DNA of 64,000 nucleotides, from NCBI GenBank assembly GCA_963851265.1, contig CAWKNZ010000010.1, positions 32,001-96,000 of the forward strand. The letters are read 5' to 3'. A program made the position numbers and the translations under genes. Below are positions 31,531-52,648 of the stretch, piece by piece. Origin of the DNA: an uncultured Gemmatimonadales bacterium. GTDB taxonomy: Bacteria; Gemmatimonadota; Gemmatimonadetes; Gemmatimonadales; Gemmatimonadaceae. How positions within the stretch are numbered: position 1 is the first letter of the stretch; the number at the start of each line of letters is the position of its first letter. The notes beneath the pieces were generated by a model, which had not been told where the DNA came from, did no database searches, and saw nothing but the letters and a program-made list of their open reading frames with translations.

Positions 31531-31804
31531 GTGCTTCGAGTTACCTGCCGTCTGATCAGTTCGCTTGCCCCGTGAGCGACTGATGTTTATAGCGACCGTG
31601 GCCTCTTCCCCGTCCACGGTCGCGGCTAGTGCCCTCACGTACCATCGTCGACCGGACGGCCCCCACCGTCCGGCCAGTTAGGCGCGGCCGCATGCGGCGG
31701 CCGCGCCCTGGTACGCCGTCATTCCTCGAGGGGCATGGTATGCCGTCCAGCTGGTGCCGCACCGCAACACGCATCGTCCGCGCGAGCGCCCGGACGGCAC
31801 GCCG

Positions 31805-35238: not shown

Positions 35239-35284
35239 CCCGCCGGTGACCCGCGCCCGCGTTCCCCACCAACCCGTTGTCGCC

Positions 35285-35968
35285 ATGCCTCTCACGTCCT
35301 CCTTCCTGATCCCGACGCGCGCCACGCTCCGGCTGGCGCTGCTCGTTGCGGGACTTTCGACGGGCGCCGCGGCGTGCGCGGCCCAGTCGGCGTCCGTCGA
35401 CACGGCGCCGGCCGCCGCGCCCCGCGCCGTGTCGATGCGCCCCGTACAGCTGCACGCGGGCGACCTCGTGAAGCTGTACATGTGGCGCGAGCCCGACCTG
35501 TCGCGCGAGTACGAGGTGAACGGCGCGGGCGCGATCGACCTGCCCAAGGTCGGCGCGGTCTCGGTCGCCGGCGTCTCGCCCGACTCGCTGCAGCACATCC
35601 TCGAACAGCGCTACGCGAAGTACCTGCGTACCCCGACCATCGAGGTCACGATGCGGCGCCGCATCTCGGTGCTCGGCGCGGTGCGCAACCCGGGCGTCTA
35701 CCAGGTCGACCCCTACGTGACCGTGGCCGCCGCCCTCGCCCTCGCCGGCGGGACGACCCCGGAGGCCCGCACCGACGAGGTCCGCGTGCTGCGCGGAGAC
35801 CGGACGTTCCGCACGCGCGTGTCGACGCGCACCGTGATCGCCGACTCGCCCGTCGAATCGGGCGACCAGCTGTTCGTACCCGATCGCGGATGGGCGACCC
35901 GCAACATCGCGGTGATCAGCGCGGCCGTCTCGGCCGTCGGGATCATCGTCTTCGCCGCCCGTCGTTAG
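35285..35968 (+). CDS. wza: Polysaccharide export lipoprotein (Wza/OPX-like, SLBB)
   Basis: Lipobox AAAC, LHAGD, G.IDLPKVG, VLGAVRNPGVY, ALALAGG. Confidence 0.8.
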   Translation: MPLTSSFLIPTRATLRLALLVAGLSTGAAACAAQSASVDTAPAAAPRAVSMRPVQLHAGDLVKLYMWREPDLSREYEVNGAGAIDLPKVGAVSVAGVSPDSLQHILEQRYAKYLRTPTIEVTMRRRISVLGAVRNPGVYQVDPYVTVAAALALAGGTTPEARTDEVRVLRGDRTFRTRVSTRTVIADSPVESGDQLFVPDRGWATRNIAVISAAVSAVGIIVFAARR

Positions 35969-35991
35969 GCACCTCCGCGCCGCCGCCCACC

Positions 35992-38409: not shown

Positions 38410-38477
38410 CAACGGCCGCCCCGTCAGCCGCGCCCTCGGCGCCTCCCTCTCCGCCCCGCCCTCCTCGAGCCCGGACC

Positions 38478-39551
38478 ATGCGCACGACGACTAGCCACAC
38501 GAGCCAAACTCCCCCACGTGTCCTCGTCACGGGCGCCGGCGGGTTCATCGGCCACCACCTGACGAGCTACCTCAAGGGGCTCGGATACTGGGTGCGCGGC
38601 GTCGACGTGAAGGCGCCCGAGTACGAGGACTCGCGCGCCGACGAGTTCATGCTGCTCGACCTGCGTCGCTGGGAGAACTGCCTCGCCGCCACGGCCGGAG
38701 TGGACGAGGTGTACGCGCTCGCCGCTGACATGGGAGGCATGGGGTTCATCTCAAAGCACCACGCGGCGATCCTGCACAACAACATCCTGATCAGCACGCA
38801 CACGCTGGACGCGGCGCGGGAGAACGGGGTGAAGCGCTACCTCTACACGTCGTCGGCCTGCATCTATCCCGAATACCGGCAGCTCACGGCGGACGTCACG
38901 CCGCTGCGCGAGGAGGACGCGTATCCGGCGCAGCCGCAGGACGCGTACGGCTGGGAGAAGCTGGTGACCGAGCGCCTCTGCGCGCACTACAGCGAGGAGC
39001 ACGGCATCGCGACCCGCGTCGTCCGGTTCCACAACATCTTCGGCCCGTTAGGCACGTGGGACGGCGGACGCGAGAAGGCGCCGGCCGCGATGTGCCGCAA
39101 GGTCGCGCTCGCGAAGCTCACGGGGCGCCCGGAGATCGACATCTGGGGCGACGGCGAGCAGACGCGCTCGTTCTGCTACATCGACGACTGCGTCGAGGGC
39201 ATCTACCGCCTCATGCGCTCAGATTACGCGGAGCCGCTCAACCTCGGCCAGGACCGGCTCATCTCGATCAACCAGCTCGCCGACATGGTCGCCGCGGCGG
39301 CCGGCACGGTCATCGAGAAGCGCCACGTGCCCGGCCCTCAGGGGGTGCGCGGGCGCAACTCCGACAACGCGCGGCTCCGTGAGGTGCTCGGCTGGGAGCC
39401 GGTGATCTCGCTCGAAGACGGCGTCGCGCGCACGTACGCGTGGATTGAGGGCCAGGTCCGCGCGCGCACGGCCGACGTCGCTCCGGCCGTGGCGGCGCCC
39501 GCACACGGGCTGCGCGCGGTCCCATCTCGCGCGACGGCGATCACCGCGTGA
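38478..39551 (+). CDS. NAD-dependent epimerase, GDP-mannose 3,5-epimerase-like
   Basis: TGAGGFIG, LAADMGGMGFI, SSACIYP, PQDAYGWEK, GGREKAPAAMCRK, GVRGRNSDN. Confidence 0.85.
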   Translation: MRTTTSHTSQTPPRVLVTGAGGFIGHHLTSYLKGLGYWVRGVDVKAPEYEDSRADEFMLLDLRRWENCLAATAGVDEVYALAADMGGMGFISKHHAAILHNNILISTHTLDAARENGVKRYLYTSSACIYPEYRQLTADVTPLREEDAYPAQPQDAYGWEKLVTERLCAHYSEEHGIATRVVRFHNIFGPLGTWDGGREKAPAAMCRKVALAKLTGRPEIDIWGDGEQTRSFCYIDDCVEGIYRLMRSDYAEPLNLGQDRLISINQLADMVAAAAGTVIEKRHVPGPQGVRGRNSDNARLREVLGWEPVISLEDGVARTYAWIEGQVRARTADVAPAVAAPAHGLRAVPSRATAITA

Positions 39552-40378
39552 GTGTCCCCATCGCGCGCGCCGGCAGCCTGACGCACCCGGCCGACGGAGC
39601 CGGGCCGGCCCGCGTCGACGTGCTTGGCGTGCGCGTCAGCGCCATCGACCCGCCCACCGCGCTCGCAACGTTCGACGGGTGGATCAGGCGCGGGGAGCGC
39701 CGGTACGTTTGCGTGAGCGGCGTGCACGGCGTGATGGAGAGCCTGCGCGACCCGGCGCTGCGCGCCATTCACAACGCGGCCGGCCTGGTCACCCCGGACG
39801 GCATGCCGCTCGTCTGGCTGAGTCGCCTGGCCGGGCACACGCGTGCCGCGCGCGTGTACGGGCCCGACCTCATGCTCGCCGCGTGCGCGCACGGCGTCGC
39901 GCGCGGTTGGCGCCACTACTTCTACGGCGGGGGCGACGGCGTGCCCGAACTGCTCGCCGAGCGGTTGCGCGCGCGCGTGCCCGGGCTCGAGGTCGTCGGG
40001 ACGTACTCGCCGCCTTTCCGCGCGCTCTCCACGGACGAGGACGACGCCGTCGTCACGCGCATCAACGCGACCGGCGCCGACGTCGTGTGGGTCGGCCTCA
40101 GCACCCCAAAGCAGGAGCGGTGGATGGCGGCGCACCGCGAGCGCCTCGCGGCGCCGGTGCTCGTCGGCGTCGGCGCGGCGTTCGACTTCCACGCCGGACT
40201 GAAACGGCAGGCCCCGCGTTGGATGCAGCGGAGTGGGCTCGAGTGGGCGTTCCGGCTCGCGAGCGAGCCGCGGCGGCTCGGGCGCCGGTACCTCGTCAAC
40301 AACCCGCTGTTCGTGTGGCACGTCGCGCGTCAACTGGTCGCGGCGCGTGCGGCGGGCCTGCGGGTCGCGCGCCCGTGA
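39548..40378 (+). CDS. WecG/TagA/CpsF family glycosyltransferase (GT26)
   Basis: PDGMPLVW, RVYGPDLM, WVGLSTPKQE, VGAAFDF, GLEWAFRLASEPRRL. Confidence 0.92.
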   Translation: MSVPIARAGSLTHPADGAGPARVDVLGVRVSAIDPPTALATFDGWIRRGERRYVCVSGVHGVMESLRDPALRAIHNAAGLVTPDGMPLVWLSRLAGHTRAARVYGPDLMLAACAHGVARGWRHYFYGGGDGVPELLAERLRARVPGLEVVGTYSPPFRALSTDEDDAVVTRINATGADVVWVGLSTPKQERWMAAHRERLAAPVLVGVGAAFDFHAGLKRQAPRWMQRSGLEWAFRLASEPRRLGRRYLVNNPLFVWHVARQLVAARAAGLRVARP

Positions 40379-41781
40379 GCGCCGTCCCGGCGGAGAGTCT
40401 GCGGGCGACCGTGCTGCGGGGCGGGACGTACCTCGCGGTGCGTCAAGTCGCGACGCTCGGCATCCACCTCGTCGGCGTGCTCCTGCTGACGCGAATCATC
40501 GGGCCGCGCGCGTACGGTCTCTACGCGGCCGCGTTCGGCATCCACACCTACCTGTACTACATCACGCAGTGCGGGCTCGGGGTGTACCTCATCCGCCGCG
40601 AGGACGACGCGGGGGTCGCCGACTACCACCAGGCCTTCACCCTGTTCCTGCTCCTCGGCATCGGTGGCGCCCTCGCCGCCGAGCTCGCGGTCCCGCTCAT
40701 TCACTGGTGGACGCGGCTCGACGGCCTCACGCCGCTGGCCCGGACGATGTTCGTCGCGCTGCCGATCCAACTCACCGCCCTCACGGCGTCCGCCAAGCTG
40801 GAGCGCGCACTCGACTACCGCCGCGTGGCGATGTCGGAGCTGCTGGGCTACGTGGCCTTCTACGGCGTCGCGCTGCCGCTTGCCGTCGCCGGGCGCGGGC
40901 CGTGGGCCCCCGTCGCGGGGTTCTGGGCGCAACAACTCGTGCTTGCCGCGCTCTACTTCGGGAACGCGAGATATCGGCCCCGGTTCGTCTGGGATCGCGC
41001 GCGCATTCGGCCGATGCTGCGCTACGGCGTGGGGTACTCCGGCGCCACGTGGGTGTGGCAGCTTCGCGACCTCGTGAACGCGCTCGTCGTCGGCCGCTAC
41101 GCGGGCGCGGCGGCCGTCGGCTACGTGGCGTTCACCGTGCGGCTCGTTGACGGGCTGAGCTTCACGAAGACGGCAGCCTGGCGGCTCTCGCTCGCGGTGC
41201 TCGCGCGGCTCCAGCACGACCAGCGGCGGCTCACGGGCGCGCTGAGCGAAGGCATGCAGCTGCAGGTGCTCGCGGGCGGCCCGATGTTGGTCGCATTCGG
41301 GTTCGTCGCCCCGTTCGCCGTCGGCCGGTTCTTCGGCGGGCGCTGGGTCCCGGTACTCGGGATCTATCCGTACATCGCACTGGCGTACCTGACCAACGCG
41401 CTGTTCAACCTGCACTCCTCGGCGCTCTACGTCGTGCGGCGGACGTGGGACGTCGCGGCGTTCCACACCGCGCACGTCGCGCTGTTCGCTGGCGGCGCGC
41501 TCCTCCTCGTCCCGCGCTTCGGAATGGCCGGCTACGGGTGGGCCGAAATGGTCGCGTTAGGCAGCTACGCGGTGGTGCACGCGCGCGTCGCCCGAAACAT
41601 CGGCACGCCGAGCTACGGCGTGGCGTGGCCGTTGTGGCTCGCGTGGGCGACGCTCCTCTTCTGGCGCGAGCTCGGGTGGTGGTGCCTCGTCGGGCCGCTC
41701 ACGGCCGCCGTGTGGCCCGGAGCCGTCCGCCAGCTGCGAACCTACGTCACGAACGTCGCGGGGTTGATCTATGCGCGCTGA
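40375..41781 (+). CDS. wzx: Oligosaccharide flippase
   Basis: Multi-TM MOP-family pattern (LLTRIIGPRAYGLYA; GRYAGAAAVGYV) in EPS operon. Confidence 0.8.
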   Translation: MSAVPAESLRATVLRGGTYLAVRQVATLGIHLVGVLLLTRIIGPRAYGLYAAAFGIHTYLYYITQCGLGVYLIRREDDAGVADYHQAFTLFLLLGIGGALAAELAVPLIHWWTRLDGLTPLARTMFVALPIQLTALTASAKLERALDYRRVAMSELLGYVAFYGVALPLAVAGRGPWAPVAGFWAQQLVLAALYFGNARYRPRFVWDRARIRPMLRYGVGYSGATWVWQLRDLVNALVVGRYAGAAAVGYVAFTVRLVDGLSFTKTAAWRLSLAVLARLQHDQRRLTGALSEGMQLQVLAGGPMLVAFGFVAPFAVGRFFGGRWVPVLGIYPYIALAYLTNALFNLHSSALYVVRRTWDVAAFHTAHVALFAGGALLLVPRFGMAGYGWAEMVALGSYAVVHARVARNIGTPSYGVAWPLWLAWATLLFWRELGWWCLVGPLTAAVWPGAVRQLRTYVTNVAGLIYAR

Positions 41782-42826
41782 GCCGCTCGTGAGCATCCTG
41801 ATCAACAACTACAACTACGGGCACGTGCTCGGCGACGCGATCGACAGCGCGCTCGCCCAGACCTACCCGCGCGTCGAGGTCGTGGTCGTAGACGACGGGT
41901 CGACCGACGATTCGCGCCGCGTGATCGAAAGCTACGGGTCGCGGATCGTCCCGGTTCTGCAGGCCAACGGCGGGCAGTGCGCGGCCGTGAGCGCGGGGTT
42001 CACCGCGAGCCGCGGCGAGATCCTCTGCCTGCTCGACTCCGACGACGTGTTCTTTCCGACGAAGGTCGCGCGCGTGGTCGAGGTGTTCGAGGAGCACGCG
42101 GAGGTCGCGTGGATGAAGCACGCGCTCCAGGTCGCCGACGGGCGTCTGCGTCCGGTTGGCGGGCTCACGCCGCCGATCGCGAAGTCGCGCGTACTGCGCC
42201 CGCGCCCGAGTGCCGCGCTCGAGGACAAGACCCGCTTCGTCGTGTCGTCCGGCGTGTCGGTTCGGCGATCGACCGCGGAGCGCTACCTCCCGATTCCGCC
42301 GGAGCACCTCGCCGAGTGGCGCTTCTGCGCCGACGCATACGTCGGTTTCTGGAGCAGCGTGTACGGCGCCTCGTACGAACTCGCCGAGCCGCTCGGCTAC
42401 TACCGGCGCGAGGATTATCAGCGCGTGCTCACCGACGACGACCTCGTGCTCTGGCTGGAGCGGCAAAACACGCTCGAGACGCGCTTCGCGCGGATGTGGT
42501 CGGAGCACACGGGGCGCGCCGTCCTCGGCTCGGACGTGCGGAAGCATCACTTGATCATCGACACCCTTCGCGGCGCCCCGTTGTTGGCCGGCGCGCGACG
42601 CCGCGAGCTCCTCGCGGGACTCGTCGACCTCTCCCGGATCACACGCGCCGAGCCCGTGCTCGCGGCGCGGCAGGCAGTCGGGCTGCTCGTTGCGTTCGGC
42701 GCTCCGCGCGCCTGGATCGCGCGCCTCTGCCGCGTGCTCGGTGTCGAGCACGCGACGGGCGGCCCACCCGCGAAATCGGGCGAGCGTCCCGCCGTGCCTG
42801 TCAACAGCCTGCATCACTTCACGTGA
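41771..42826 (+). CDS. Glycosyltransferase family 2
   Basis: PLVSILINNYNY, VDDGSTD, LLDSDD. Confidence 0.9.
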   Translation: MRAEPLVSILINNYNYGHVLGDAIDSALAQTYPRVEVVVVDDGSTDDSRRVIESYGSRIVPVLQANGGQCAAVSAGFTASRGEILCLLDSDDVFFPTKVARVVEVFEEHAEVAWMKHALQVADGRLRPVGGLTPPIAKSRVLRPRPSAALEDKTRFVVSSGVSVRRSTAERYLPIPPEHLAEWRFCADAYVGFWSSVYGASYELAEPLGYYRREDYQRVLTDDDLVLWLERQNTLETRFARMWSEHTGRAVLGSDVRKHHLIIDTLRGAPLLAGARRRELLAGLVDLSRITRAEPVLAARQAVGLLVAFGAPRAWIARLCRVLGVEHATGGPPAKSGERPAVPVNSLHHFT

Positions 42827-44427
42827 GTCGAGCCCGGCGCCTCGACGCGCCTCTGGTCGTCGCAGCGGGCGGCGCGATGACCGTGGGTGCCGTGACCGCG
42901 GTCGCGCCCCCGGCCGGACTCGCGGCTGCCGCCGGCGCGCTCGGGCTCACGCTCGTGTTTTCTAACGTCGCGGAGTTCACGCGGCGTGCGATCGCGCTCC
43001 TCGGCTTCACCCTGACCGGGTACGCATTCCTCGGTAAGGGTTTCGCGTACCTCGGTGCGCCACCGCTCTTCATCGGCGAGATCGCGCTCACCGCGATGCT
43101 GCTCGCGGCGCTCCTCCGAGGTGCATGGGGACCCGTCGTGCGCTCGCCGGTGGTCTACGCGCTCGTCGCGTTTGGGCTCTGGGGCGCGAAGCAGACCGTG
43201 CCCTACTGGTCCACCGCCGGGATCGTCGCCCTGCGCGACGCGGTGCTCTGGGGATACGGCGCGTTCGTGATCACGGTGGCGGCGTTGTTCGCCCGCCGCG
43301 ACACGATGGAGGGCGCGATCCGGGCGTACGGCCGCTACTTCATCTGGCTACCGATCTGGATGCCGTTCTACGGCATCGTCGCCCGGGTCGCGGGCGCGTC
43401 GTCGCCGATCATGCCGGGGTCCGACGTTCCCCTGCTCTACTTCAAGCCCGGCGATGCGGCCGTGCACCTCGCCGGCATCGCGGCATTCGTGCTCCTCGGT
43501 CTCGCGGACACCGTCGGCAGCGAGCGGTCGCCGCTCGAGGCGGCGGCGTGGCGCCCCTGGGCGTGGTGGACGCTCTGGTTCGGCGGAATGGCGGTGGCGG
43601 CGTCCGCCTCGCGCGGCGGCTTTCTCGCGGCGGCGCTCGCCGTCGCGCTCTCGGTCGCCCTGGGCCTGTCACGGCGCCGGCGCGTCGCGTGGTGGCGACC
43701 CGCCGTGACGGCGATGGTCGTCGGCACCGTGTTCGTCGCCGCCAACGTCGACATCGATGTCGGACTGCCGCGCAAGATCTCGTCGCGGCAGTTCGTGTCG
43801 AACGTCCTCAGCATCGGCAGCTCGCACAACGCGGACATCGACCTCGCCGGCACCGTCGAGTGGCGGCTCGCGTGGTGGGACGGCATCCGCAACTACACCC
43901 TGCACGGGCCATACTACTGGAACGGCAAGGGCTTCGGCGTGAACCTCTCGGAGGACGACGGGTTCCGCACGTCCGGCGGTCTCGGCGAGGCGCCCAACCG
44001 CAACCCGCACAGCATCCACTACAACGTCCTCGCGCGCATGGGGGTGCCGGGAGCGGTGCTGTGGGCCGTGCTGCAGCTGACGTTCGTCGCTTCGATGGTC
44101 GCCGCCTACGTGCGCGCGCGCCGCCGCGGCTGGGACTGGTGGGAGCGGGTCAACATCTGGATTCTCGCCTACTGGCTGGCGCTCGTCGTGAACGGGTCGT
44201 TCGACGTGTTCATCGAGGGGCCGCAGGGCGGCATCTGGTTCTGGTCGGTGATCGGGCTCGGCGTGGCGGCGCTCGACGCGCAGCGCCGCCACGCCCGGGC
44301 GTCAGGCGCCCGGCCGGTCTCCGCGCCCGGTCACGGCGCGGGCGCCATCGCACCCGACGTCGTGCGCGTCGCGGCCGTGCCGCTCGCGTCGACGCCGTAC
44401 GCGCGCCACTCGGACCATCGGCGGTAG
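42823..44427 (+). CDS. O-antigen ligase / Wzy polymerase-like membrane protein
   Basis: Multi-TM; SASRGG, WRLAWW, GKGFG, NPHSIH..VLARMG. Confidence 0.8.
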   Translation: MSRARRLDAPLVVAAGGAMTVGAVTAVAPPAGLAAAAGALGLTLVFSNVAEFTRRAIALLGFTLTGYAFLGKGFAYLGAPPLFIGEIALTAMLLAALLRGAWGPVVRSPVVYALVAFGLWGAKQTVPYWSTAGIVALRDAVLWGYGAFVITVAALFARRDTMEGAIRAYGRYFIWLPIWMPFYGIVARVAGASSPIMPGSDVPLLYFKPGDAAVHLAGIAAFVLLGLADTVGSERSPLEAAAWRPWAWWTLWFGGMAVAASASRGGFLAAALAVALSVALGLSRRRRVAWWRPAVTAMVVGTVFVAANVDIDVGLPRKISSRQFVSNVLSIGSSHNADIDLAGTVEWRLAWWDGIRNYTLHGPYYWNGKGFGVNLSEDDGFRTSGGLGEAPNRNPHSIHYNVLARMGVPGAVLWAVLQLTFVASMVAAYVRARRRGWDWWERVNIWILAYWLALVVNGSFDVFIEGPQGGIWFWSVIGLGVAALDAQRRHARASGARPVSAPGHGAGAIAPDVVRVAAVPLASTPYARHSDHRR

Positions 44428-45917
44428 TCCCCGGCCCAGTTGTAGGGACGGGGGTTCTGCCCGAGGGTGTACGTGTTCCGCTCGAATCGGTTGTTGCGCG
44501 TGTAGATGGTGCTGTCGACATCGGACACCGCGCCGGCGCTGCGCGCCCACTCCCACGTCGTCCCCACGTCAATGGTGTTGTCGTGCACGTAGACGTTCTG
44601 CACGAGGTACTGGCCGTAGGCGCCGCCGCCGCGCGCCTGCTGAACGAGCGCGATCCCCGTCGCGTTGTCGCGGAGCGTGTTGCCGTAGACCTCGACGTTC
44701 GGCGACGCGTGGACGCCGATGCCCGCGCCCCAGAGCCAGTAGTTCTTGCGCACGTCCTGCTGCCCGTTCCCGACGAGCGTGTTGTTGCGGATCACGCAGC
44801 CCGGCCCGTTGGTCTCGTGCGCGATGCCCTCGCGCACGTTGTACTCGACGCGGTTGCCTTCGTAGAGCACGTCGCGGTTGTCGATGTCGGTCCACAGGCC
44901 GACGCCGCCGTTGTGGTGGCTGTAGTTGTTTCGCACCGCCGCCCAGCGGGTCTTCACGAGCTTCCCGCCCCCGCCCTCGAAGTCCATGTTCGAAGCCGTG
45001 GGGTTGTTGTAGGCGATCTCGTTGCCCTCGATCACGACCGAGTCGCCGATGCCGCCGTAGCCCATCGAGGCGTTGCGGAAGAGCCGCGAGCGGAGCAGGT
45101 GCGTGCGGTTCCCGACGCGGACGCCGAGGTAGCCGTTGTCGCTCACGTCGAGCGAATCGAGTGTCCAGCGCGCGCCGCCGCCGTCCTCCGACAGTCCCGC
45201 CTGGATCGCCCCGGTCTGGAACGGGGGCGCGTACTGCGTCACGACGAGGTTCGTGATCGTGACGTCGTTCGGGTAGGGCTGCTGCTGGCCGAACGTGAAC
45301 GCGAACTGCGTGACACCTTCACCCGTGAGGATCGTGCCTGCGCCCTCACCGCGGAACGTGTCACCGCTCTTCGGAACGACGCTCTGCCGAACGTACCGTC
45401 CGGCCTTGAGCAAGAACGTCGTCCCCGCGGGATTCGCGTCGACGGCCGCCTGGATGCTCTGTTGCGCCGTGAGGACCACCATTGGAGGTACCGGGGCCGT
45501 GACGACCACCCACGTGGTGTCTTGGCGCGTGATCGCGGTCGCGCTCGCGACGACGCGCCCGGTACCGGTACCGATGCCCTTCGCGACGCCGCTCGCGTCG
45601 ACCGTGACGACGGCGGGGTCGATCGACGTCCAGCGAATCGACTTCGCCGCCGCCGTCGGCCCCGAGTAGACGCGGGTGATCGACGTCGTCAGAGCGCGGG
45701 TCGCGCCGACCGAAAGGCGGACGACCACGGCGCCGGGCGGAGGGGTGATCGAGGTGGACGTCACGCCGGCGGCGGTGCCGGACGTCGCGACCGCGCTGAG
45801 CGACGGGGCGACGCCCGCGTGGGGCGCGTCGACGCCGTCCGTCCCGCACGCGGCGGCGACGACGAGCAGGGGAGTCGCGAGGATTGCGGGCACGGGCGCA
45901 AATATGCGCTGGCGCAT
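44331..45917 (-). CDS. Secreted lipoprotein: Ig-like (Big_2) domain + right-handed parallel beta-helix (pectin-lyase fold)
   Basis: Lipobox AAAC; WTSIDPAVVTVDASGVAKGIGTG (Big_2); Asn-ladder repeats (IEGNEIAYN, VRNNYSHHNGGVGLWTD, IRNNTLVGNG, VYGNTL, VHDNTI). Confidence 0.85.
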   Translation of the reverse strand: MRQRIFAPVPAILATPLLVVAAACGTDGVDAPHAGVAPSLSAVATSGTAAGVTSTSITPPPGAVVVRLSVGATRALTTSITRVYSGPTAAAKSIRWTSIDPAVVTVDASGVAKGIGTGTGRVVASATAITRQDTTWVVVTAPVPPMVVLTAQQSIQAAVDANPAGTTFLLKAGRYVRQSVVPKSGDTFRGEGAGTILTGEGVTQFAFTFGQQQPYPNDVTITNLVVTQYAPPFQTGAIQAGLSEDGGGARWTLDSLDVSDNGYLGVRVGNRTHLLRSRLFRNASMGYGGIGDSVVIEGNEIAYNNPTASNMDFEGGGGKLVKTRWAAVRNNYSHHNGGVGLWTDIDNRDVLYEGNRVEYNVREGIAHETNGPGCVIRNNTLVGNGQQDVRKNYWLWGAGIGVHASPNVEVYGNTLRDNATGIALVQQARGGGAYGQYLVQNVYVHDNTIDVGTTWEWARSAGAVSDVDSTIYTRNNRFERNTYTLGQNPRPYNWAGDYRRWSEWRAYGVDASGTAATRTTSGAMAPAP

Positions 45918-45938
45918 GAGCAGGGACCTGATGTGGTG

Positions 45939-46058
45939 TCGTTCGGCAACCCGGCCGGCCTGGCACACAGCGGAAGTGCGTGTGCGGTAGCCCCGTGGCT
46001 TTGCGGCCCCGGCTTTCGCCGGGTGTGCCTTTGTCGCGGCCTCATTAGGCCTAACGAT
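45939..46058 (-). ncRNA. c-di-GMP-I (GEMM-I) riboswitch, copy 1
   Basis: Minus strand GCGACAAAGGCACACCCGGC-GAAA-GCCGGGGCCGCAAAGCCACGGGGCTACC...GGCCGGCCGGGTTGCCGAA, about 20 nt upstream of the 45917 start. Confidence 0.85.
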
Positions 46059-46159
46059 CGAATGCCGTGCTGCGGCGCGGTCGGATCAACCGCACGGCCA
46101 GGACGCGCAATCCGACCCCGCGTCACGGCGCGTCGCGCGCGCGCGGTGTGGCTCGGCTG

Positions 46160-47515
46160 ATGCGGCCCGTGTTCCGCGCGGCCGCGTCTCGGGTTGCGAC
46201 ACGGCTCTCGCGCCGCGTCTGGTTCGCGTCGGCCGCGCCCTCGATCACGACCTGGATCGGGGAGTCGGTGTTCCGGCGATCCGGCCGACGCGTCGCGGCG
46301 GCCGCCGGGCCCGACGTCGCGCACGCGCGGCGGATCCTCGTCGTGCGCCTCGACAAGATCGGCGACGTCGTCCTCACCACGGCCTTCCTGCGGGAACTCG
46401 CGCGGAGCGCGCCGCGCGCGCGCATCACCGTGGTCGTCAGTCCCGGCATGCGCGTCGTGGTCGACGGCTGCAGCGGCGTCGACGAGGTGCTGACCTACGA
46501 CGCGCGCGCGTCACGCTACCTCGGACCGCTCCGGAACGCTCACGCCGCAGCGTACGCGGCCCGACACCTCTGGCCGCGGCGCTTCGACGTCGCGATCGTG
46601 CCGCGCTGGGACGTCGACTACTACCACGCCGCGGCGCTCGCTTACCTCAGCGGTGCACCCATGCGGCTCGGCGTGTCGGAACGGGTCACGCCGATCAAGG
46701 CGCGCCTCAACCGCGGGTACGACCGCTTTTATACGCATTTGAGCGAAGACGCCGAGGCGCGGCACGAGGTCGAGCACGGATTCTCGCTGCTCCGGCGCGT
46801 GGGGGCCACGGTCGAAGCCGAACACCTCGAGGTGCAGCCGCCGCCGGAGGCCGTCACTTTCGCCGCGGATCTCTTCCGCACGCACGACGTCGCCGCCGAC
46901 GATCTCGTGATCGCGTTCGCGCCCGGGGCGGGCGCGGCGCGGCGGCAGTGGCCGGCCGATCGCCTCGCGACCGTCGCGGCCTGGGTCGCCGCGCAGCCGC
47001 GCGCGCGCGTCGTGCTCCTCGGCGGCTCGGCCGACGCACGGCTCGGCGCGGACCTCGCCCGCGCCGTCGGCGCGGGGGTGATCGATCTCGTCGGGCGCGC
47101 GTCGCTGCCGCAGACCGTCGCCGTTCTCAGACGCTGTGCGCTGTTCGTCGGCAACGACTCGGGCCCAATGCACCTCGCGGCAGCGGCGGGCGCGCGCGTC
47201 GTCGCCGTTTCGTGCCATCCCGAAGGTGGCTCCGCGCTGCACGAAAACGCACCGGAGCGCTTCGCGCCCTGGGGCGTACCGTACACCATCGTGCGCCCTG
47301 CTCACGCTGCTGCACCCTGCGTAGACGGCTGCGAGATGCCGCATCCGCACTGCATCCGCGGCGTCACGGTCGATGCCGTCCGCGCCGCGGTCGCCGAACA
47401 CCTCGCCCAGATCACCCCCCAGTCACCGCTCGCGCACCCCAGCGACGCGCGGTGGCCGGACCACGGCCGCAACTCCCCCTCGCTCACCTCGCCGACCGGA
47501 GAAGGGACACGATGA
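46160..47515 (+). CDS. Glycosyltransferase family 9 (heptosyltransferase-like)
   Basis: RILVVRLDKIGDVVL, APGAG...RQWP, FVGNDSGPMHLAAA. Confidence 0.88.
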   Translation: MRPVFRAAASRVATRLSRRVWFASAAPSITTWIGESVFRRSGRRVAAAAGPDVAHARRILVVRLDKIGDVVLTTAFLRELARSAPRARITVVVSPGMRVVVDGCSGVDEVLTYDARASRYLGPLRNAHAAAYAARHLWPRRFDVAIVPRWDVDYYHAAALAYLSGAPMRLGVSERVTPIKARLNRGYDRFYTHLSEDAEARHEVEHGFSLLRRVGATVEAEHLEVQPPPEAVTFAADLFRTHDVAADDLVIAFAPGAGAARRQWPADRLATVAAWVAAQPRARVVLLGGSADARLGADLARAVGAGVIDLVGRASLPQTVAVLRRCALFVGNDSGPMHLAAAAGARVVAVSCHPEGGSALHENAPERFAPWGVPYTIVRPAHAAAPCVDGCEMPHPHCIRGVTVDAVRAAVAEHLAQITPQSPLAHPSDARWPDHGRNSPSLTSPTGEGTR

Positions 47516-48642
47516 GCACACATCTGCAGGCGCTCCGAACCGCGGCTCGGTCGCGGCCGTACTTCCCCGCCCTCGACGGTCTGCGCGCCGTGTGCGTGCT
47601 CCTCGTCATGACGTCGCACGTGCGTCAGGGATGGGCCGAGGCGCGGCCCGGACTCTTCGACGTGCTACACGGCGCACTGGGCGTATCGGTCTTCTTCGTC
47701 CTGTCCGGATTTCTCATCACGCTACTGTGCCTGCGCGAGGAGTCCGAGACGGGCGGTGTCGACTTTCGCGCGTTCTACCTGCGGCGCGCGTTCCGCCTCT
47801 TTCCGCTGTACTACCTCGTCCTCGGCGTCTACGTCGCGCTGGTCCTCGTGCTCCATCTGGACCCGCGGCGCGCGGCGTTCCGCCAGGCGCTGCCGTACTA
47901 CATGACGTATTTGCAGGAGCTGCCGCACTTCTTCGGGAACGGGACGGCCCCGTTCGAAATCTCGTGGTCGCTCGGGATCGAGGAGAAGTTCTACGTGGTG
48001 TGGCCCGCGCTCGCGTTCGCGCTCACGCACGGCGTCACGCGGCGGTTCGGCGTGGCCGCCGGCGTGCTCGCGCTTACGTTAGGCGCCGCCCCGGCGCTGG
48101 GCGCGCCGGTCAACGTCATCGCCGTCTTCCGCGACTACGGCGTGATCGGGCTCGGCTGCGCGCTCGCCCTCGTCGTCTTCGACGACCGGACCCGGGGCGC
48201 AGTGGCGGGGCTGGCGCGGGGGTGGGTGCCGCTCGTCGCGATCGCCGCGGTCGCCCTGAGCCGAGGCGACGTCTTAGTCGTCGGCGTCGCCACCGCCCTC
48301 GCCCTGCCGGCGCTCGTCGTTCAGGCGGGCCGCGTCTCCGGCGCACTCGCGTGCGGCCCGCTCGTGTGGCTCGGGCAGCGTTCGTACGGCGTGTACCTCG
48401 TGCATCAACTGACGCTGGGCATCGCGCGCAAGTTCGTCCGCGTCCCAGCGGGCGACGCGAACGAGTTCCTGACCTTCGTCGTCGGTCTCGCGCTCACCAT
48501 TCCTGTCGTCGCGGTGCTCTACCGCGCCGTCGAGCGGCCACTCATCGGCGTGGGACGACGCCTCGGCCAGCGGCGGGCACGTGCCGCGGCGACGCCCGAC
48601 GTTCCGCTTGCCTCGATGCCGGCGTCGGTTCCATCGGTCTGA
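47512..48642 (+). CDS. Acyltransferase-3 (OafA-like O-acetyltransferase)
   Basis: LDGLRAV, GVSVFFVLSGFLI, FYLRRAFRLFP, WSLGIEEKFY, SYGVYLVH, VERP. Confidence 0.9.
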   Translation: MSTHLQALRTAARSRPYFPALDGLRAVCVLLVMTSHVRQGWAEARPGLFDVLHGALGVSVFFVLSGFLITLLCLREESETGGVDFRAFYLRRAFRLFPLYYLVLGVYVALVLVLHLDPRRAAFRQALPYYMTYLQELPHFFGNGTAPFEISWSLGIEEKFYVVWPALAFALTHGVTRRFGVAAGVLALTLGAAPALGAPVNVIAVFRDYGVIGLGCALALVVFDDRTRGAVAGLARGWVPLVAIAAVALSRGDVLVVGVATALALPALVVQAGRVSGALACGPLVWLGQRSYGVYLVHQLTLGIARKFVRVPAGDANEFLTFVVGLALTIPVVAVLYRAVERPLIGVGRRLGQRRARAAATPDVPLASMPASVPSV

Positions 48643-48760
48643 ACGACTACGCGGCCCACTCGCCGGGATGGCGAGCGGGCCGCGTCGTTCGGGCCGGTTC
48701 CGGGCTCAGCGCCGCGCGCCGGTCACGGCCGCGTCCACGGCGTGAGCCGCGTGGACTACA

Positions 48761-50485
48761 TCACGGCGCGTTGCGGTAGAACGTGCTGTTCGTGTCCATG
48801 CCGAGCCCCTGCCACTGCGGGTCCGTCTTCCAGCCCTGGAACTCGAAGCCCGGGGAGACGTTCGCGGCGATGCGGTGCAGGTAGTAGATGTTGTGCACGA
48901 AGCGGTTATTCCGGCCGTTGAAGATACCCGAGCCGCCGTCGTCCTCGACGAGCCCCGCGGCGACGTCCGCATGGGTCGGCGAGTAGCCCGTTTGCGGGGT
49001 CGTCTGCGTGATCGTGTTGTCGTGCACGTAGAGGTTCTGCACGAGGTATGCGCCGTACGGACCCGATCCCCGGCTCTGCTGAATGCCGGTGATGCCGTTG
49101 AAGTTACCGGACACGGTGTTGCCGTAGATCTCGACGTTGGGCGACGCCGCGATGCCGATGCCCGCGTTCCACAGCCACGCGTTGCCGCGAGGGTCGCGCC
49201 AGCCGTTGTTGGTGACCGTGTTGTTCCGGATCACGGCGTCGTAGCTCTTCTCGCGGAAGATCCCTTCGCACGCGTTGTTGTCGACGCGGTTGTTCTCGAT
49301 GAGGGTGTGGATGTTGCCCTCGTCGGTCCAGAGGCCCACGCCCTGGTTGTCGTGCACGTAATTGCCGCGGATGACCAGGCTGTCGGTGAGCGTCCACTTG
49401 GTGCCGCCCGACTCGAAGTTGAGGTCGCCCGTGCGGCTGTAGTTGCCCCACGCGATCTCGTTGTTCTCCACGAGCACGTAGTTACCCGCGCCCGAGATGT
49501 TCGAGACGTAGTTGTGGTGCACGTTGTTGTTCGTGACGCGCATGCGGTCGCCGACACGGATGCCGAAGTAGCCGCTGTAGCTCACCTCGTTGCTGTCGAC
49601 CACCCAGCCCACGGTCGCGTTGCCCGGGGCACTACCGCCGCTGATCGCGCCGTCCTGGAACGGGGGGGCGTAGTTGGTGATCTTCATCCCGCGGATGGTG
49701 ACGTTGTTCACCCAACCGGTGCCCGCGTAGCCGCGGAATGCCCACTGCGTCCGCCCCTGGCCGTCGAGCACCGTGCCGGGCTCGCCGTGGAACACGTCCC
49801 CGGCTTTCGGGATCACGGTCTGCTGCACGTGCGTCCCCGACTTCAGGATGAACGTGGTGCCGGCCGGCGCCGCGTTCACGGCCGCCTGGATGCTCTGCCC
49901 TGGGTACACCGGCGTGCCGACCAGCACCGGGGCCGGCGGCGGCGCAGCGATGCCCGTACCACCGGTGGTGTTGGCCCACTTCTGATTGCTGCCGCCGCCG
50001 CACGACCAGATCTGCAGTGGGGTGCCGTTCGACGTGCCGAAGTTCGTGGCGTCGAGGCACATGCCGTTGACACCCTTGATCTCGCCGGCCGCCGAAGCGG
50101 TCCACAGCTGGCTCGGCGCGCCCGTACAAGGCCAGATCATCACCGGCGTGCCGTTCGCGCTCAGACCGCCCGACGTGTCGAGGCACATCGTGCCGCCATA
50201 GACGCGGATGGTCTTGTCGCTCTGCCAGGTCCACTGCTGGTTGACGCCGCCGCTGCAGTTCCACAGCTGGAGACCGGCGCCGGCGCTCTGGCTGATGTTG
50301 ACGACGTCCATGCACTGGCCGGACGCGGCAGCGCTGGAGATCGACCCGGCCGTGCCGGTGTTGGGCGTCAGGCTGTAGGCCGGCGCTACTGTGCTGCCGG
50401 TCGGGGCGGTGGCGAGCGTGTGGTCGGAGCACGCCGCACCGCCGAGGGCGAGCACGGCGACCGTTGCTGCACGAGACAACTGCAT
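48761..50485 (-). CDS. Secreted lipoprotein: ricin-B lectin domain + right-handed parallel beta-helix
   Basis: Lipobox GAAC; three QxW ricin subrepeats (CMDV..NQQW, CLDT..SQLW, CLDA..NQKW); beta-helix paralogous to 44331-45917; AGGAG RBS. Confidence 0.88.
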   Translation of the reverse strand: MQLSRAATVAVLALGGAACSDHTLATAPTGSTVAPAYSLTPNTGTAGSISSAAASGQCMDVVNISQSAGAGLQLWNCSGGVNQQWTWQSDKTIRVYGGTMCLDTSGGLSANGTPVMIWPCTGAPSQLWTASAAGEIKGVNGMCLDATNFGTSNGTPLQIWSCGGGSNQKWANTTGGTGIAAPPPAPVLVGTPVYPGQSIQAAVNAAPAGTTFILKSGTHVQQTVIPKAGDVFHGEPGTVLDGQGRTQWAFRGYAGTGWVNNVTIRGMKITNYAPPFQDGAISGGSAPGNATVGWVVDSNEVSYSGYFGIRVGDRMRVTNNNVHHNYVSNISGAGNYVLVENNEIAWGNYSRTGDLNFESGGTKWTLTDSLVIRGNYVHDNQGVGLWTDEGNIHTLIENNRVDNNACEGIFREKSYDAVIRNNTVTNNGWRDPRGNAWLWNAGIGIAASPNVEIYGNTVSGNFNGITGIQQSRGSGPYGAYLVQNLYVHDNTITQTTPQTGYSPTHADVAAGLVEDDGGSGIFNGRNNRFVHNIYYLHRIAANVSPGFEFQGWKTDPQWQGLGMDTNSTFYRNAP

Positions 50486-50519
50486 TCCGAACTTCTCCTG
50501 CTTAGGGCCTTCGGTGGGG

Positions 50520-50650
50520 ACCGTCCGGCAGCTCGACCAGCATGGCCCCCGTCCGCCTGGAACGGGGGTGGTAGCTTCGAAGCTTTGCGACCCCGACTTT
50601 CGCCGGGTGTGCCTTTGTCGCGGCCTTCCGATGTGCGGAGGCCCTACGAC
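50520..50650 (-). ncRNA. c-di-GMP-I (GEMM-I) riboswitch, copy 2
   Basis: Minus strand GCGACAAAGGCACACCCGGC-GAAA-GTCGGGGTCGCAAAGCTTCGAAGCTACC...TGCTGGTCGAGCTGCCGGA, about 35 nt upstream of the 50485 start. Confidence 0.85.
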
Positions 50651-50838
50651 TGCGCCGTCCAGGTGCGTCTTGCGGGGACGGCTGGAGCCTACCCGGGCCG
50701 GTGCCCTCCGCGAAGCGGGCAGATTTGCGCGATTGTGAGCGCAATCACCGATTACGCGGCGTCGCTGATACGGCGTTCTACCCTCAGTGACCGGAAGCTG
50801 CCCGGTGCGTCTTCCGCAGTTTGCGCCGGTCGACCGCG

Positions 50839-52476
50839 TCAGCGGACGGCCGAAGTCGCGCCGTCGCACGATGCGCCCGTGCCCGCGCGCGCGGGACGGG
50901 GCGTACGAACATATAGTATCGCTTCAGAACCATACCCGCGGAATGCGGTGTCGCGCGCGAAGCACGCGTCGGCGTACCTGCGCAGGATGCGCGCTTCCGT
51001 GCGCGACTGCGCGCTCAACTCCGTCCGGCTGAGCAGGAGCCAAACGCGCCGCTCGCCTCCGAGCAGGCGCGCCGCGGCCCGCGAGATGGCGACGGTGTCC
51101 GCGCCGAGCTCCGCGCCCGGGAACGGCACGACGCGGCGCGCCACCCCGCGCGCGTAGGCCCGGCGGTAATAGTAGTCCGTCACCGTCGACGTGTACGACG
51201 CGCTCACCACCACGGGATCAACTCCCAACCGCCCCACGCGCGCGATGAACGCCGTCGCCCCGCGGCTGTCCTCGCGGGCGTAGCGCGGGTCACCGTAGTA
51301 GCCGCGAAGCGACGCGGCGCTCAGCGCGACGAGGGATGCCGCGGCGACCGCGCGCGCCCACGCCGGCCGGAGCGCGCACACGCCGCTCGCGAGCAGCACG
51401 ACGAACGCGGGGAACGCAATCACTGCGTACCGCACGTTGTACGGGTAGCGCGCCGACACCGAGCCGGCCGCCGCGAATGCGACCGGGACGACGCCTAACA
51501 GGACGACGGCCGCGAGCGCGCGCGGCGCGCGACGCCACAACGCCCGCGCGCCAGCCGCGAGCAGCGCGGCCAGCCCGAGCAACACCGGCGCGATCAGCCC
51601 GGCCGCCGCGCGAGCCACCTCGCCCGGCGCGCGGAGGTGGAACTCGGCGACGCTCGGCCCGAGCGAGTACCCCGCGCCGAATACCCATAGCGTGAACCCG
51701 AGCACCGACGGGTCGAACGACCCGTCGGTGTGGTTGGTCGGATAGTGATAGATGGTGAAATACCGCAGGAATCCGGGCACGATCAGCAGGCCCGCGGCGA
51801 CGAACACGGCCGCCCACCGCGGCCAGCGCGACGGCGGCTCGTACAGCGCGACCACGGCCACCGCGATCGGCACGAGCGCGAGCCCGACGGTGTGACAGTA
51901 GAACGAGGCCGTCAGCAGCAGCGCCACACCGACGCGCGGCCACGTCGCATCCGGCCTGTCAATCGCGATCTGGGTCGCGCGCAGCGTGCCGAGGGCGAGC
52001 AGCATCAACGTCGCGTAGGCGCGGGCTTCCTGACTGAACCAGACGTCGAAGGGGGAGATCGCGAACAGCGCCGCGCCGACCGCCGCGGTCGCCGTCCCCA
52101 CCCACCGGCGCGCGACCACGTAGAGCAGCGGGATGCACAGCGTGCCCGCCGCGACCGACACCGCGCGTAAGACCGCTTCCGAGTCGCCGAATCGGAGTGC
52201 CGCGTTGACGAGCAAAAAGTACAGGGGCGGGACCGACCCGTCGTACTCCCGCTGGGTGATCACCCACCACGGCGAGCCCGCCGAACTCAGATACGTGGCC
52301 GCCTCGTCGACCCAGAGGCTCTGCGCGCCAACCCGGTACAGTCGGAGGACGAGGCCCACCAGGGTCGCAGCGACGACCAAGGCGCGGGCGTCGCCGGCGA
52401 GCCTCGCCCAGGGAACACGGTGCCGCACGTCAGCCGGCGTAGCGGGCGGACGCGAATCGCGAGCAGATTCACTCAC
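50839..52476 (-). CDS. GT-C fold membrane glycosyltransferase (GT39/PMT_2-like)
   Basis: LRLYRVGAQSLWVDE, PPLYF, SQEARAY, multi-TM. Start approximate. Confidence 0.85.
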   Translation of the reverse strand: MSESARDSRPPATPADVRHRVPWARLAGDARALVVAATLVGLVLRLYRVGAQSLWVDEAATYLSSAGSPWWVITQREYDGSVPPLYFLLVNAALRFGDSEAVLRAVSVAAGTLCIPLLYVVARRWVGTATAAVGAALFAISPFDVWFSQEARAYATLMLLALGTLRATQIAIDRPDATWPRVGVALLLTASFYCHTVGLALVPIAVAVVALYEPPSRWPRWAAVFVAAGLLIVPGFLRYFTIYHYPTNHTDGSFDPSVLGFTLWVFGAGYSLGPSVAEFHLRAPGEVARAAAGLIAPVLLGLAALLAAGARALWRRAPRALAAVVLLGVVPVAFAAAGSVSARYPYNVRYAVIAFPAFVVLLASGVCALRPAWARAVAAASLVALSAASLRGYYGDPRYAREDSRGATAFIARVGRLGVDPVVVSASYTSTVTDYYYRRAYARGVARRVVPFPGAELGADTVAISRAAARLLGGERRVWLLLSRTELSAQSRTEARILRRYADACFARDTAFRGYGSEAILYVRTPRPARAGTGASCDGATSAVR

Positions 52477-52648
52477 CGGGTCGAAGACCTTGGGACAGGG
52501 CGTGCGCCCCGCATGCGGTACCGGCCGCACGCGGCATCGGCAACATAGTGCGACGACCGAGTTCGGCGACCGCACGGCGCACGACGATCATGCGTCGCAT
52601 TCTTGCTCCGTCTGGCACGAACGCGCCGGCCACCGTATATGCGGGCAT

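Follow-up and report, generated by a model that had tools for sequence, protein, structure and literature searches.

Organisation of the locus

Two minus-strand genes encoding beta-helix proteins (P0001 and P0002), each preceded by a c-di-GMP-I aptamer (RS1 and RS2, respectively), were found in the window, i.e. the 64 kb stretch of DNA that was analysed. The features of the locus are as follows:

31754..42826, plus strand: core EPS cluster (priming sugar transferase, deacetylase-GT2, Wza, Wzc, NDP-sugar epimerase, WecG, Wzx, GT2)
42877..44427, plus strand: Wzy_C polymerase-like gene, convergent with the P0001 gene
44331..45917, minus strand: P0001 gene, open frame of 528 aa (Pfam Beta_helix, E 4e-19)
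45942..46039, minus strand: RS1, c-di-GMP-I aptamer (RF01051, 72 bits, E 6e-14; G20/A47/C92), ending 24 nt before the P0001 AUG
46067..48642, plus strand: GT9 glycosyltransferase and Acyl_transf_3 genes between both predicted lipoprotein genes, divergent from RS1
48761..50485, minus strand: P0002 gene, open frame of 574 aa (Pfam Beta_helix, E 3e-16)
50524..50623, minus strand: RS2, c-di-GMP-I aptamer (RF01051, 63 bits; G20/A47/C92), ending 38 nt before the P0002 AUG
50842..52575, minus strand: PMT_2 (GT-C type) gene, directly upstream of RS2 and on the same strand

The genes flanking P0001 and P0002 were assigned by Pfam to Bac_transf, deacetylase-GT2, Poly_export, Wzc-like, epimerase, WecG, Wzx, GT2, Wzy_C, GT9, acyltransferase, PMT_2 and Epimerase_2, which bears out the Wzx/Wzy EPS cluster named in the initial annotation. 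The 3' ends of the Wzy_C and P0001 genes overlap by 97 nt (44331-44427). Antisense insertion of both genes into a plus-strand cluster had also been proposed. Both genes do lie on the minus strand, but so does the PMT_2 gene upstream of RS2, so that the P0002 gene is no isolated antisense insert and may be co-transcribed with the PMT_2 gene. Neither a sigma-70 promoter nor a minus-strand terminator was found in 44000-53000.

Aptamers

An Rfam scan of the window returned exactly two RNA-family matches, both from the c-di-GMP-I clan. RS1 and RS2 cover RF01051 model positions 1-87 with scores above the cut-off of 35 bits, and the proposed c-di-GMP-I aptamers before both genes were thereby confirmed. 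G20, A47 and C92 were read from the alignments in both, with A47 taken here to be a ligand-contact position. RS1 was also matched by RF03167 (65.1 bits at 45941-46038), and c-di-GMP-I-GGC was its Rfam label by best E value; this variant was rejected since its consensus G at position 47, to which we take the name GGC to refer, is A in RS1. G20 and C92 are ligand contacts and A20 defines the c-AMP-GMP (GEMM-Ib) riboswitches (PMC6140456). The latter class was discarded because both aptamers carry G20, in agreement with the earlier call of c-di-GMP rather than cGAMP type. A GAAA loop of the GNRA tetraloop type is present in RS1 and RS2, with receptor strands deviating from the consensus (CUAC for CUAA; CAGG in RS1, CAUG in RS2). 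The leaders share 29 identical nt, which include the common string noticed previously. Their spacing to the AUG was corrected from 20-35 nt to the 24 and 38 nt listed above, and the spacer of RS2 contains a Shine-Dalgarno-like AGGAG. The model scores and contact bases support RS1 and RS2 as predicted canonical c-di-GMP-type aptamers. The genome itself has 23 GGDEF matches.

Protein architecture and predicted active site

P0001 and P0002 share 45% identity over 393 aa and were divided into the following predicted parts:

P0001: signal with Cys24, linker, Ig-like strand domain (~65-140), GH120-like beta-helix (~143-528) with E314/K319/W342/D344/E368
P0002: signal with Cys19, ricin-B lectin (46-170), GH120-like beta-helix with E358/K363/W386/D388/E412

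Lipoproteins were called by a pattern test for a signal plus Cys, by which both proteins are predicted to be anchored in the envelope. The claim of paralogous beta-helix lipoproteins thus held, by Pfam and sequence identity for fold and paralogy and by pattern for the predicted lipidation. The lectin module of P0002 was called by Pfam (Ricin_B_lectin, E 1e-41). Big_2 was not called by Pfam in P0001, and the label Ig-like was taken from strands of the AF2 model together with a motif that we presume to be typical of such domains. The AF2 model of P0001 (pLDDT 85) has a single uninterrupted beta-helix from residue 143.

A PDB search with a single sequence gave no match, and a profile of alignment A1 matched AlgE4 only, weakly. 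The best PDB sequence match of the cross-phylum profile A2 was the GH120 enzyme XylC (E 4.1e-7), with AlgE4 next (E 4.9e-7). XylC residues E353/K358/W380/D382/E405 were aligned with E314/K319/W342/D344/E368 of P0001, a correspondence of aligned sequences and not of atom distances. Mutation of any of these five residues abolishes XylC activity (PMC3507262). The Lys, Asp and Glu are conserved in 120/120 sequences of A1 and in 108, 108 and 107 of 108 in A2. By fold comparison, XylC (3vst) was aligned over 331 residues with Z 27.3, rmsd 2.9 and about 15% structural identity; AlgE4 (Z 35.7; Foldseek rank 1) and several lyases and tailspikes ranked above it.

Other features of XylC are not kept. Its essential W383 corresponds to column 345, which is I in 65/108 sequences of A2, and H360 to column 321 (V, A, S in A2). 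The inserted beta-sandwich carrying W113 is absent, as the model helix is continuous from 143 and P0001 and P0002 have no such Pfam match. The substrate is therefore expected to differ from that of XylC. We describe the beta-helix as GH120-like, without assigning it to GH120 proper; the glycan-active fold suggested at the outset is narrowed to a predicted retaining glycosidase site of this type.

Distribution of the beta-helix family

The family, unannotated so far, comprised 2294 clusters at E <= 1e-30; its members occur close to Wzx/Wzy EPS genes across many phyla and are predominantly encoded on the other strand. At least two EPS markers were present in 24/34 family loci of at least 15 kb, compared with 13/248 tiles of the own genome, and at least one in 30/34 of these long loci. 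Homologues of genes of the present locus recurred at family loci, namely Wzy (18), WecG (16) and the epimerase (10). The family was multi-copy in 31/66 loci; 22/66 had no EPS marker, and many of the marker-free loci are short contigs. These counts support a genuine link between the family and EPS loci. An aptamer was present before only 4/28 related beta-helix genes, so that a fixed, inserted cassette of riboswitch and beta-helix, as first envisaged, was not upheld: the family regularly resides in EPS loci, usually without the aptamer. No description of this arrangement or of the family was found in the paper searches; CAZy and riboswitch-survey supplements may list these RNAs or proteins.

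An order-wide aptamer subtype

RS1 and RS2 belong to an order-wide aptamer subtype (n=45). A predicted lipoprotein follows 40/45 of its members, compared with 66/1195 background ORFs (5.5%). Three points qualify these counts: the subtype was defined after the sequences were seen, the choice of start codons was biased towards lipobox starts, and the genomes compared are related rather than independent samples. In the own genome, 4/4 aptamers lead predicted lipoproteins with glycan-enzyme-like folds. The predicted lipoproteins carry interchangeable glycan-type domains. Long Big_2 repeats are common among the aptamer targets, and subtilases and GH39-like domains occur as targets at sites remote from EPS genes. 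The aptamer goes with modular lipoproteins in general and is loosely paired with the beta-helix. EPS-like context was found at 13/20 subtype loci (background 13/248), and fewer than two EPS markers at 7/20. Spacing from aptamer to start was 17-38 nt throughout and 17-28 nt in 41/45. The P1 extension covaries, being paired in 28/44 compared with a mean of 15.8 and a maximum of 25 in shuffles. At sister A20 aptamers on similar lipoproteins, hairpins are formed from the aptamer 3' strand, many with U-tracts, in an ON layout. A literature search by title and abstract start found no c-di-GMP riboswitch study in the Gemmatimonad phylum.

Expression platform

An anti-SD model, in which the aptamer 3' strand would pair with GGAGG, was plausible by eye but was rejected (own duplex -6.9, cross -6.8 kcal/mol, p 0.25). 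Pairing was stronger both with other SD-bearing regions (-8.7) and with shuffles (-8.2) than in the own duplex, and 17 sliding aptamer windows against the own RBS gave a lowest p of 0.08. Enforcing the aptamer fold shifted RBS accessibility only slightly, from 0.51 to 0.54 and from 0.52 to 0.56; of 26 cases, constrained folding increased it in 6 and decreased it in 5, with no direction. Whole-leader folding was no better than in shuffles (z -0.4, -0.5), which says little for an aptamer with tertiary fold. As neither an anti-SD helix nor a terminator was found, ON at high c-di-GMP is favoured only slightly over OFF.

Separate from the protein question, the aptamers may bind c-di-GMP and act via RNA stability or Rho access, or as OFF switches, a possibility to be taken seriously though we lean against it. 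The negative anti-SD and terminator searches at these leaders agree with it, and turning an enzyme that cuts the matrix OFF would suit keeping the matrix at high c-di-GMP. The two class I switches of V. cholerae have opposite effects, and both work without termination (PMC6366702); Vc2 is described as an OFF switch linked to RNA stability. The tight start-codon spacing, however, points to the ribosome-binding region, and an ON layout is seen in the sister A20 switches of similar genes.

Interpretation

With modest confidence, we favour P0001 and P0002 as c-di-GMP-gated, envelope-anchored GH120-like glycosidases acting on the polysaccharide of their own locus. Asp344/Asp388 would be the nucleophile, positioned by Lys319/Lys363, and Glu368/Glu412 the acid/base, which would make both proteins retaining glycosidases (or transglycosidases). 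Since the capping beta-sandwich of XylC is absent, the groove is probably open and the polymer would be cut internally. The most likely substrate would be the Wzy-made polysaccharide of the locus, for chain trimming, clearing or matrix remodelling, with the Ig-like or lectin module as spacer or targeting part. Binding of c-di-GMP by each mRNA leader would alter gene expression after transcription start; because the aptamer abuts the ribosome-binding region, ribosome loading is probably the controlled step.

Alternatively, the proteins might be c-di-GMP-regulated matrix lectins or tethers, whose conserved groove would bind EPS and fasten it to the cell while turning over little or none of it. 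The predicted lipid anchor with Ig or ricin-B modules, the long Big_2 repeats among many aptamer targets and the fold neighbour PfbA, a beta-helix adhesin (Z 28.8), are consistent with this. Adhesins are known c-di-GMP riboswitch targets (PMC6366702), and WceF is described as slow and lectin-like. Near-invariance of nucleophile, its Lys and acid/base across phyla is nevertheless expected for catalysis and not for binding alone, and we consider this alternative unlikely. Less likely still, the two enzymes would target glycans of foreign or environmental origin, for scavenging or for attack on competitors' matrix, and would owe their place in EPS loci to a general accumulation of surface-glycan genes. 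Known GH120 enzymes are catabolic xylosidases, and marker-free family loci and aptamer targets away from EPS genes exist, but the EPS markers in most long loci, the recurring Wzy, WecG and epimerase and the frequent shortness of marker-free contigs argue against it. Modification of the polymer by an AlgE-like C5 epimerase or lyase is improbable, since the AlgE4 alignment, despite the best fold match, a near-tied sequence match and Asp178 aligned to D344, begins at residue 156 and leaves uncovered the Tyr149/Asp152/His154 motif of what we take to be the AlgE site (Tyr149/Asp152/His154/Asp178), the family having G-G-x-K at that turn and no conserved Tyr or His, whereas the XylC match runs through five essential residues.

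On a wider scale, we tentatively consider riboswitch-only matrix remodelling in Gemmatimonadales, a reading we think possible without expecting it. A portable cyclic-dinucleotide aptamer plus lipoprotein-signal leader would have been recombined onto interchangeable spacers (Big_2 repeats, ricin-B) and glycan-enzyme heads (the undescribed GH120-like family, an undescribed alpha/alpha-toroid family, other beta-helices, lyase-like, GH39-like). The G20 c-di-GMP branch would act at the ribosome-binding site without pairing partner and the A20 (cGAMP-type) branch by antitermination, and the GH120-like proteins would form a new cross-phylum glycosidase family for one widespread Wzy-type polysaccharide.

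c-di-GMP usually acts on EPS via protein receptors on synthases or transcription factors. The present data suggest that c-di-GMP exerts direct control over enzymes cleaving or remodelling the slime of the cell itself; if true, this RNA-level control would be a different wiring, apparently lineage-wide in a common, little-studied soil group. Since catalytic residues are predicted and a substrate is proposed for this large beta-helix family, a new glycosidase family becomes directly testable, and the conserved aptamer-to-start spacing without anti-SD helix offers a test case for GEMM-I switching without a classical platform.

Comparison with known systems

Vc1-gbpA (Vibrio cholerae) and Bc2-cap (Bacillus thuringiensis) share aptamer class and contact bases with RS1 and RS2. 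Their targets are exported glycan-binding or adhesive proteins, whereas RS1 and RS2 lead genes within an EPS synthesis locus that encode predicted enzymes of lipoprotein type. Vc1 acts without terminator. For RS1 and RS2, no expression platform was evident. XylC is a right-handed beta-helix with five active-site residues common to the P0001/P0002 family, which differs in lacking the beta-sandwich (XylC 76-200), in replacing W383 and H360, and in its predicted lipidation, Ig or lectin module and EPS-locus context. The mannuronan C5-epimerases AlgE4/AlgG include the best fold match with one Asp aligned and the presumed Tyr/Asp/His motif unmatched; the present locus has Wzx/Wzy genes and no alginate operon. 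WceF of Pantoea stewartii and RbmB of V. cholerae (fold neighbour, Z 29.4) are beta-helix proteins that cleave EPS produced by their own cells, as is predicted for P0001 and P0002, and WceF is likewise encoded in its own EPS cluster. WceF forms a tailspike-like trimer, and RbmB is a lyase; neither matched profile A2 by sequence, and no riboswitch control was found for them in the literature examined. WceF, RbmB and Vc1-gbpA serve as precedents for the interpretation favoured here.

The beta-helix genes and their EPS locus

The window belongs to contig C10, from a genome of 4.6 Mb. The following features were analyzed:

44331–45917 (−), P0001, predicted beta-helix lipoprotein of 528 aa
45942–46039 (−), RS1, c-di-GMP-I aptamer ahead of P0001
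48761–50485 (−), P0002, paralogous beta-helix predicted lipoprotein of 574 aa
50524–50623 (−), RS2, c-di-GMP-I aptamer ahead of P0002

Both genes proposed in the initial annotation were intact, each with a Pfam beta-helix, and their paralogy held (45% identity over 393 residues). Signal-like N-termini were present in both, with Cys24 (P0001) and Cys19 (P0002). P0002 carried a ricin-B lectin domain. The AF2 model of P0001 had a strand-rich domain at residues ~65–140 with no Pfam call, which we read as Ig-like from a motif. The nearest named relatives of P0001 were labelled Gemmatirosa and Gemmatimonadaceae. An antisense position inside a Wzx/Wzy EPS cluster had also been claimed; the cluster was found, but the PMT_2 gene upstream of RS2 shares the strand of the two genes. 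P0001 overlaps the end of the Wzy (Wzy_C) gene by 97 nt of convergent coding sequence (44331–44427; Wzy tail coding-like, GC3 0.92), which could be a source of antisense interference. Two polysaccharide deacetylases, at 33316–35235 (fused to a GT2) and 55431–56489, resembled the type that belongs to the XrtA (PEP-CTERM) system, with TIGR03006 matches below the cut-off.

Aptamers RS1 and RS2

Rfam searches of the whole window returned two RNA matches, both of the c-di-GMP-I clan. The two leaders scored 72 and 63 bits with RF01051 (cut-off 35), which had matches in 0/14 control genomes. As predicted for c-di-GMP ligands, G20, A47 and C92 were present in both; G20 versus A20 is described in PMC6140456 as what tells c-di-GMP from cGAMP switches. 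The aptamers end 24 nt (RS1) and 38 nt (RS2) before the AUG. The common string noted earlier was recovered within 29 identical bases that make up their 5' halves (46010–46038 and 50595–50623), whereas the proteins are only 45% identical. Both also have a rare C at position 24 (7/106 aptamers). Recent homogenisation or a leader swap is a possible origin of the identity and of C24. As an RNA, each falls squarely within an established class, one that has adhesins and glycan-binding proteins among its targets. The source genome contained 23 GGDEF matches. Since only ~30–120 nt part RS1 from the divergent GT9 gene (46039–46160), the promoter of P0001 is likely to share sequence with that of GT9 or with the 5' end of GT9; a search of 44000–53000 gave no sigma-70 consensus.

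Switching direction

The P1 extension beyond the two-base bulge covaried (30 and 28 of 44 paired; shuffle means 22.0 and 15.8, maxima 30 and 25), which indicates that P1 is real. An SD-like motif typically began 7–14 nt past the model end. Because neither a terminator (minus strand) nor, by folding and pairing tests, an anti-SD helix was found in the leaders, sequence does not fix the ON/OFF direction. Class I switches are stated to act either way and to need case-by-case tests (PMC6366702). Analogy with a sister group carrying A20 and with Vc1-gbpA, as presented in PMC4744006, tilts towards ON. The sister group comprised 19 aptamers from 8 genomes, with a lipobox in 9 of 16 readable genes. 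Its aptamers form strong hairpins in which the 3' strand pairs with sequence further downstream. U-tracts follow many of these hairpins, an arrangement typical of ON switches.

A20 (cGAMP-type) GEMM-I aptamers with a distinct P1 stood ahead of Big_2 lipoproteins at loci L027, L031, L033, L034:15006–15093, L053, L057, L059, L060, L163, L164, L166, L168, L169 and L178, mostly with the hairpin from their own 3' strand and often with a U-tract. In genome G039, two contigs each carried a tandem array of three. The A20 aptamers suggest 3',3'-cGAMP signalling in the order Gemmatimonadales.

Occurrence of the beta-helix family

From 580 GTDB genome matches, 66 loci were kept (Gemmatimonadota, Acidobacteriota, Actinomycetota, Nitrospirales, Dehalococcoidia, Gammaproteobacteria and others). 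With 25 EPS proteins of the source genome as markers, 44/66 loci had at least one and 29/66 at least two; for the 34 loci of at least 15 kb these counts were 30 and 24. Among control 18 kb tiles of the source genome, self-hits included, 13/248 had at least two. Markers lay on the opposite strand 75 times versus 32, and 31/66 loci held two or more family copies. The family is thus normally found as paralogs on the opposite strand of an EPS locus, and the window is no exception in this. Within the order the family was patchy (3/200 other genomes with one query at E ≤ 1e-30; 3/4 in the genus by profile).

Aptamer targets in the order

RF01051 was present in 45/61 related genomes, a tally that takes in one unpublished genome (G011) used nowhere else. 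106 of 124 matches were examined, excluding G011 and 17 of the weakest. A subtype defined by aptamer letters only, but set after data inspection, counted 46 distinct aptamers from 25 genomes (the source genome's four among them), with start codon spacings of 17–38 nt. The lipoprotein pattern occurred in 40/45 readable subtype genes versus 66/1195 background ORFs, and in 64/100 for all 105 distinct aptamers, proportions somewhat inflated by a start picker preferring lipobox starts. At least two EPS markers were found in 13/20 subtype loci (wide flanks, mostly picked for long contigs).

In 41 scanned targets, lipoproteins join Big_2 repeats or ricin-B to a range of C-terminal heads (further beta-helices, lyase-like domains with weak PF14099 matches, GH39-like domains, subtilases, unknowns). 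The protein P0004 combines a ricin-B module with a head 80% identical to that of P0001 and is 44% identical to P0002, a demonstration of module swapping. A fixed riboswitch and beta-helix cassette, as initially envisaged, did not hold up: an aptamer stood directly upstream of only 4/28 beta-helix genes in Gemmatimonadota loci (five with <1 kb upstream DNA included). Beyond these, one such gene was found in a Dehalococcoidia-titled record (L122:6992–7083, c-di-GMP-I aptamer 12 nt ahead of a 941-aa exported family protein). With the bin taken from the record title, aptamer and beta-helix may have come together in another phylum as well. Other GEMM-I aptamers of the order preceded type IV pilin-like genes (L062, with N_methyl motif, L167, L188) and small STAS-domain genes (L065, L069).

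The source genome (G000) has two further aptamers. Each leads a lipoprotein gene, and both proteins belong to a single alpha/alpha-toroid family (profile E 4e-85):

C2:535630–537732 (+) and C2:354148–355669 (−), c-di-GMP-I aptamer loci (L080, L081)

The first of these genes sits in another EPS locus of the genome, which also carries an exosortase-like gene; the other lies in no EPS locus. The family is unannotated, with 109 relatives and invariant Tyr/Arg/Asp residues. Its model (pLDDT 92) had weak best fold matches to GH88 unsaturated glucuronyl hydrolase, and an Atlas lead pointed to GH127/PcRGLX-like clusters.

Conserved residues and proposed enzyme type

The P0001 domain had 1376 relatives among 8000 scored candidates, and the cross-phylum profile gathered 2294 clusters at E ≤ 1e-30. 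K319, D344, E368 and R429 were invariant in 120 close relatives; across 108 sequences from many phyla, K was kept in 108, D in 108, E368 in 107, W342 in 102 and E314 in 92. The top PDB sequence match of the profile was the GH120 beta-xylosidase XylC (E 4.1e-7), near-tied with the C5 epimerase AlgE4 (4.9e-7). The AlgE alignment spans only one of the AlgE catalytic residues. The P0001 model (pLDDT 85) was closest to AlgE4 (Z 35.7), followed by RbmB (29.4) and XylC (27.3); fold rank is uninformative on function among beta-helices.

In the profile alignment, XylC E353, K358, W380, D382 and E405 fall on the conserved residues of the family. All five are reported as essential in PMC3507262, which proposes D382 as nucleophile and E405 as acid-base of a retaining mechanism. 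Two further XylC residues, W383 (essential as well) and H360, have no counterpart in the family, and the beta-sandwich supplying W113 is absent; the family is therefore classed as GH120-like rather than GH120. The absent beta-sandwich would leave an open groove and favor endo action.

Comparison with known systems

No report on the combination of riboswitch, beta-helix and EPS, on riboswitches in the phylum Gemmatimonadota or on the beta-helix family was found in the open-access papers searched. The riboswitch-led lipoproteins are a genuine observation and one case of a broader pattern. The enzyme hypothesis that they lead to is specific and testable, and all functional steps, of RNA and proteins alike, are inferred. 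Beta-helix enzymes cutting the cell's own EPS are already known, as described for WceF (PMC7949094) and RbmB (PMC11637428).
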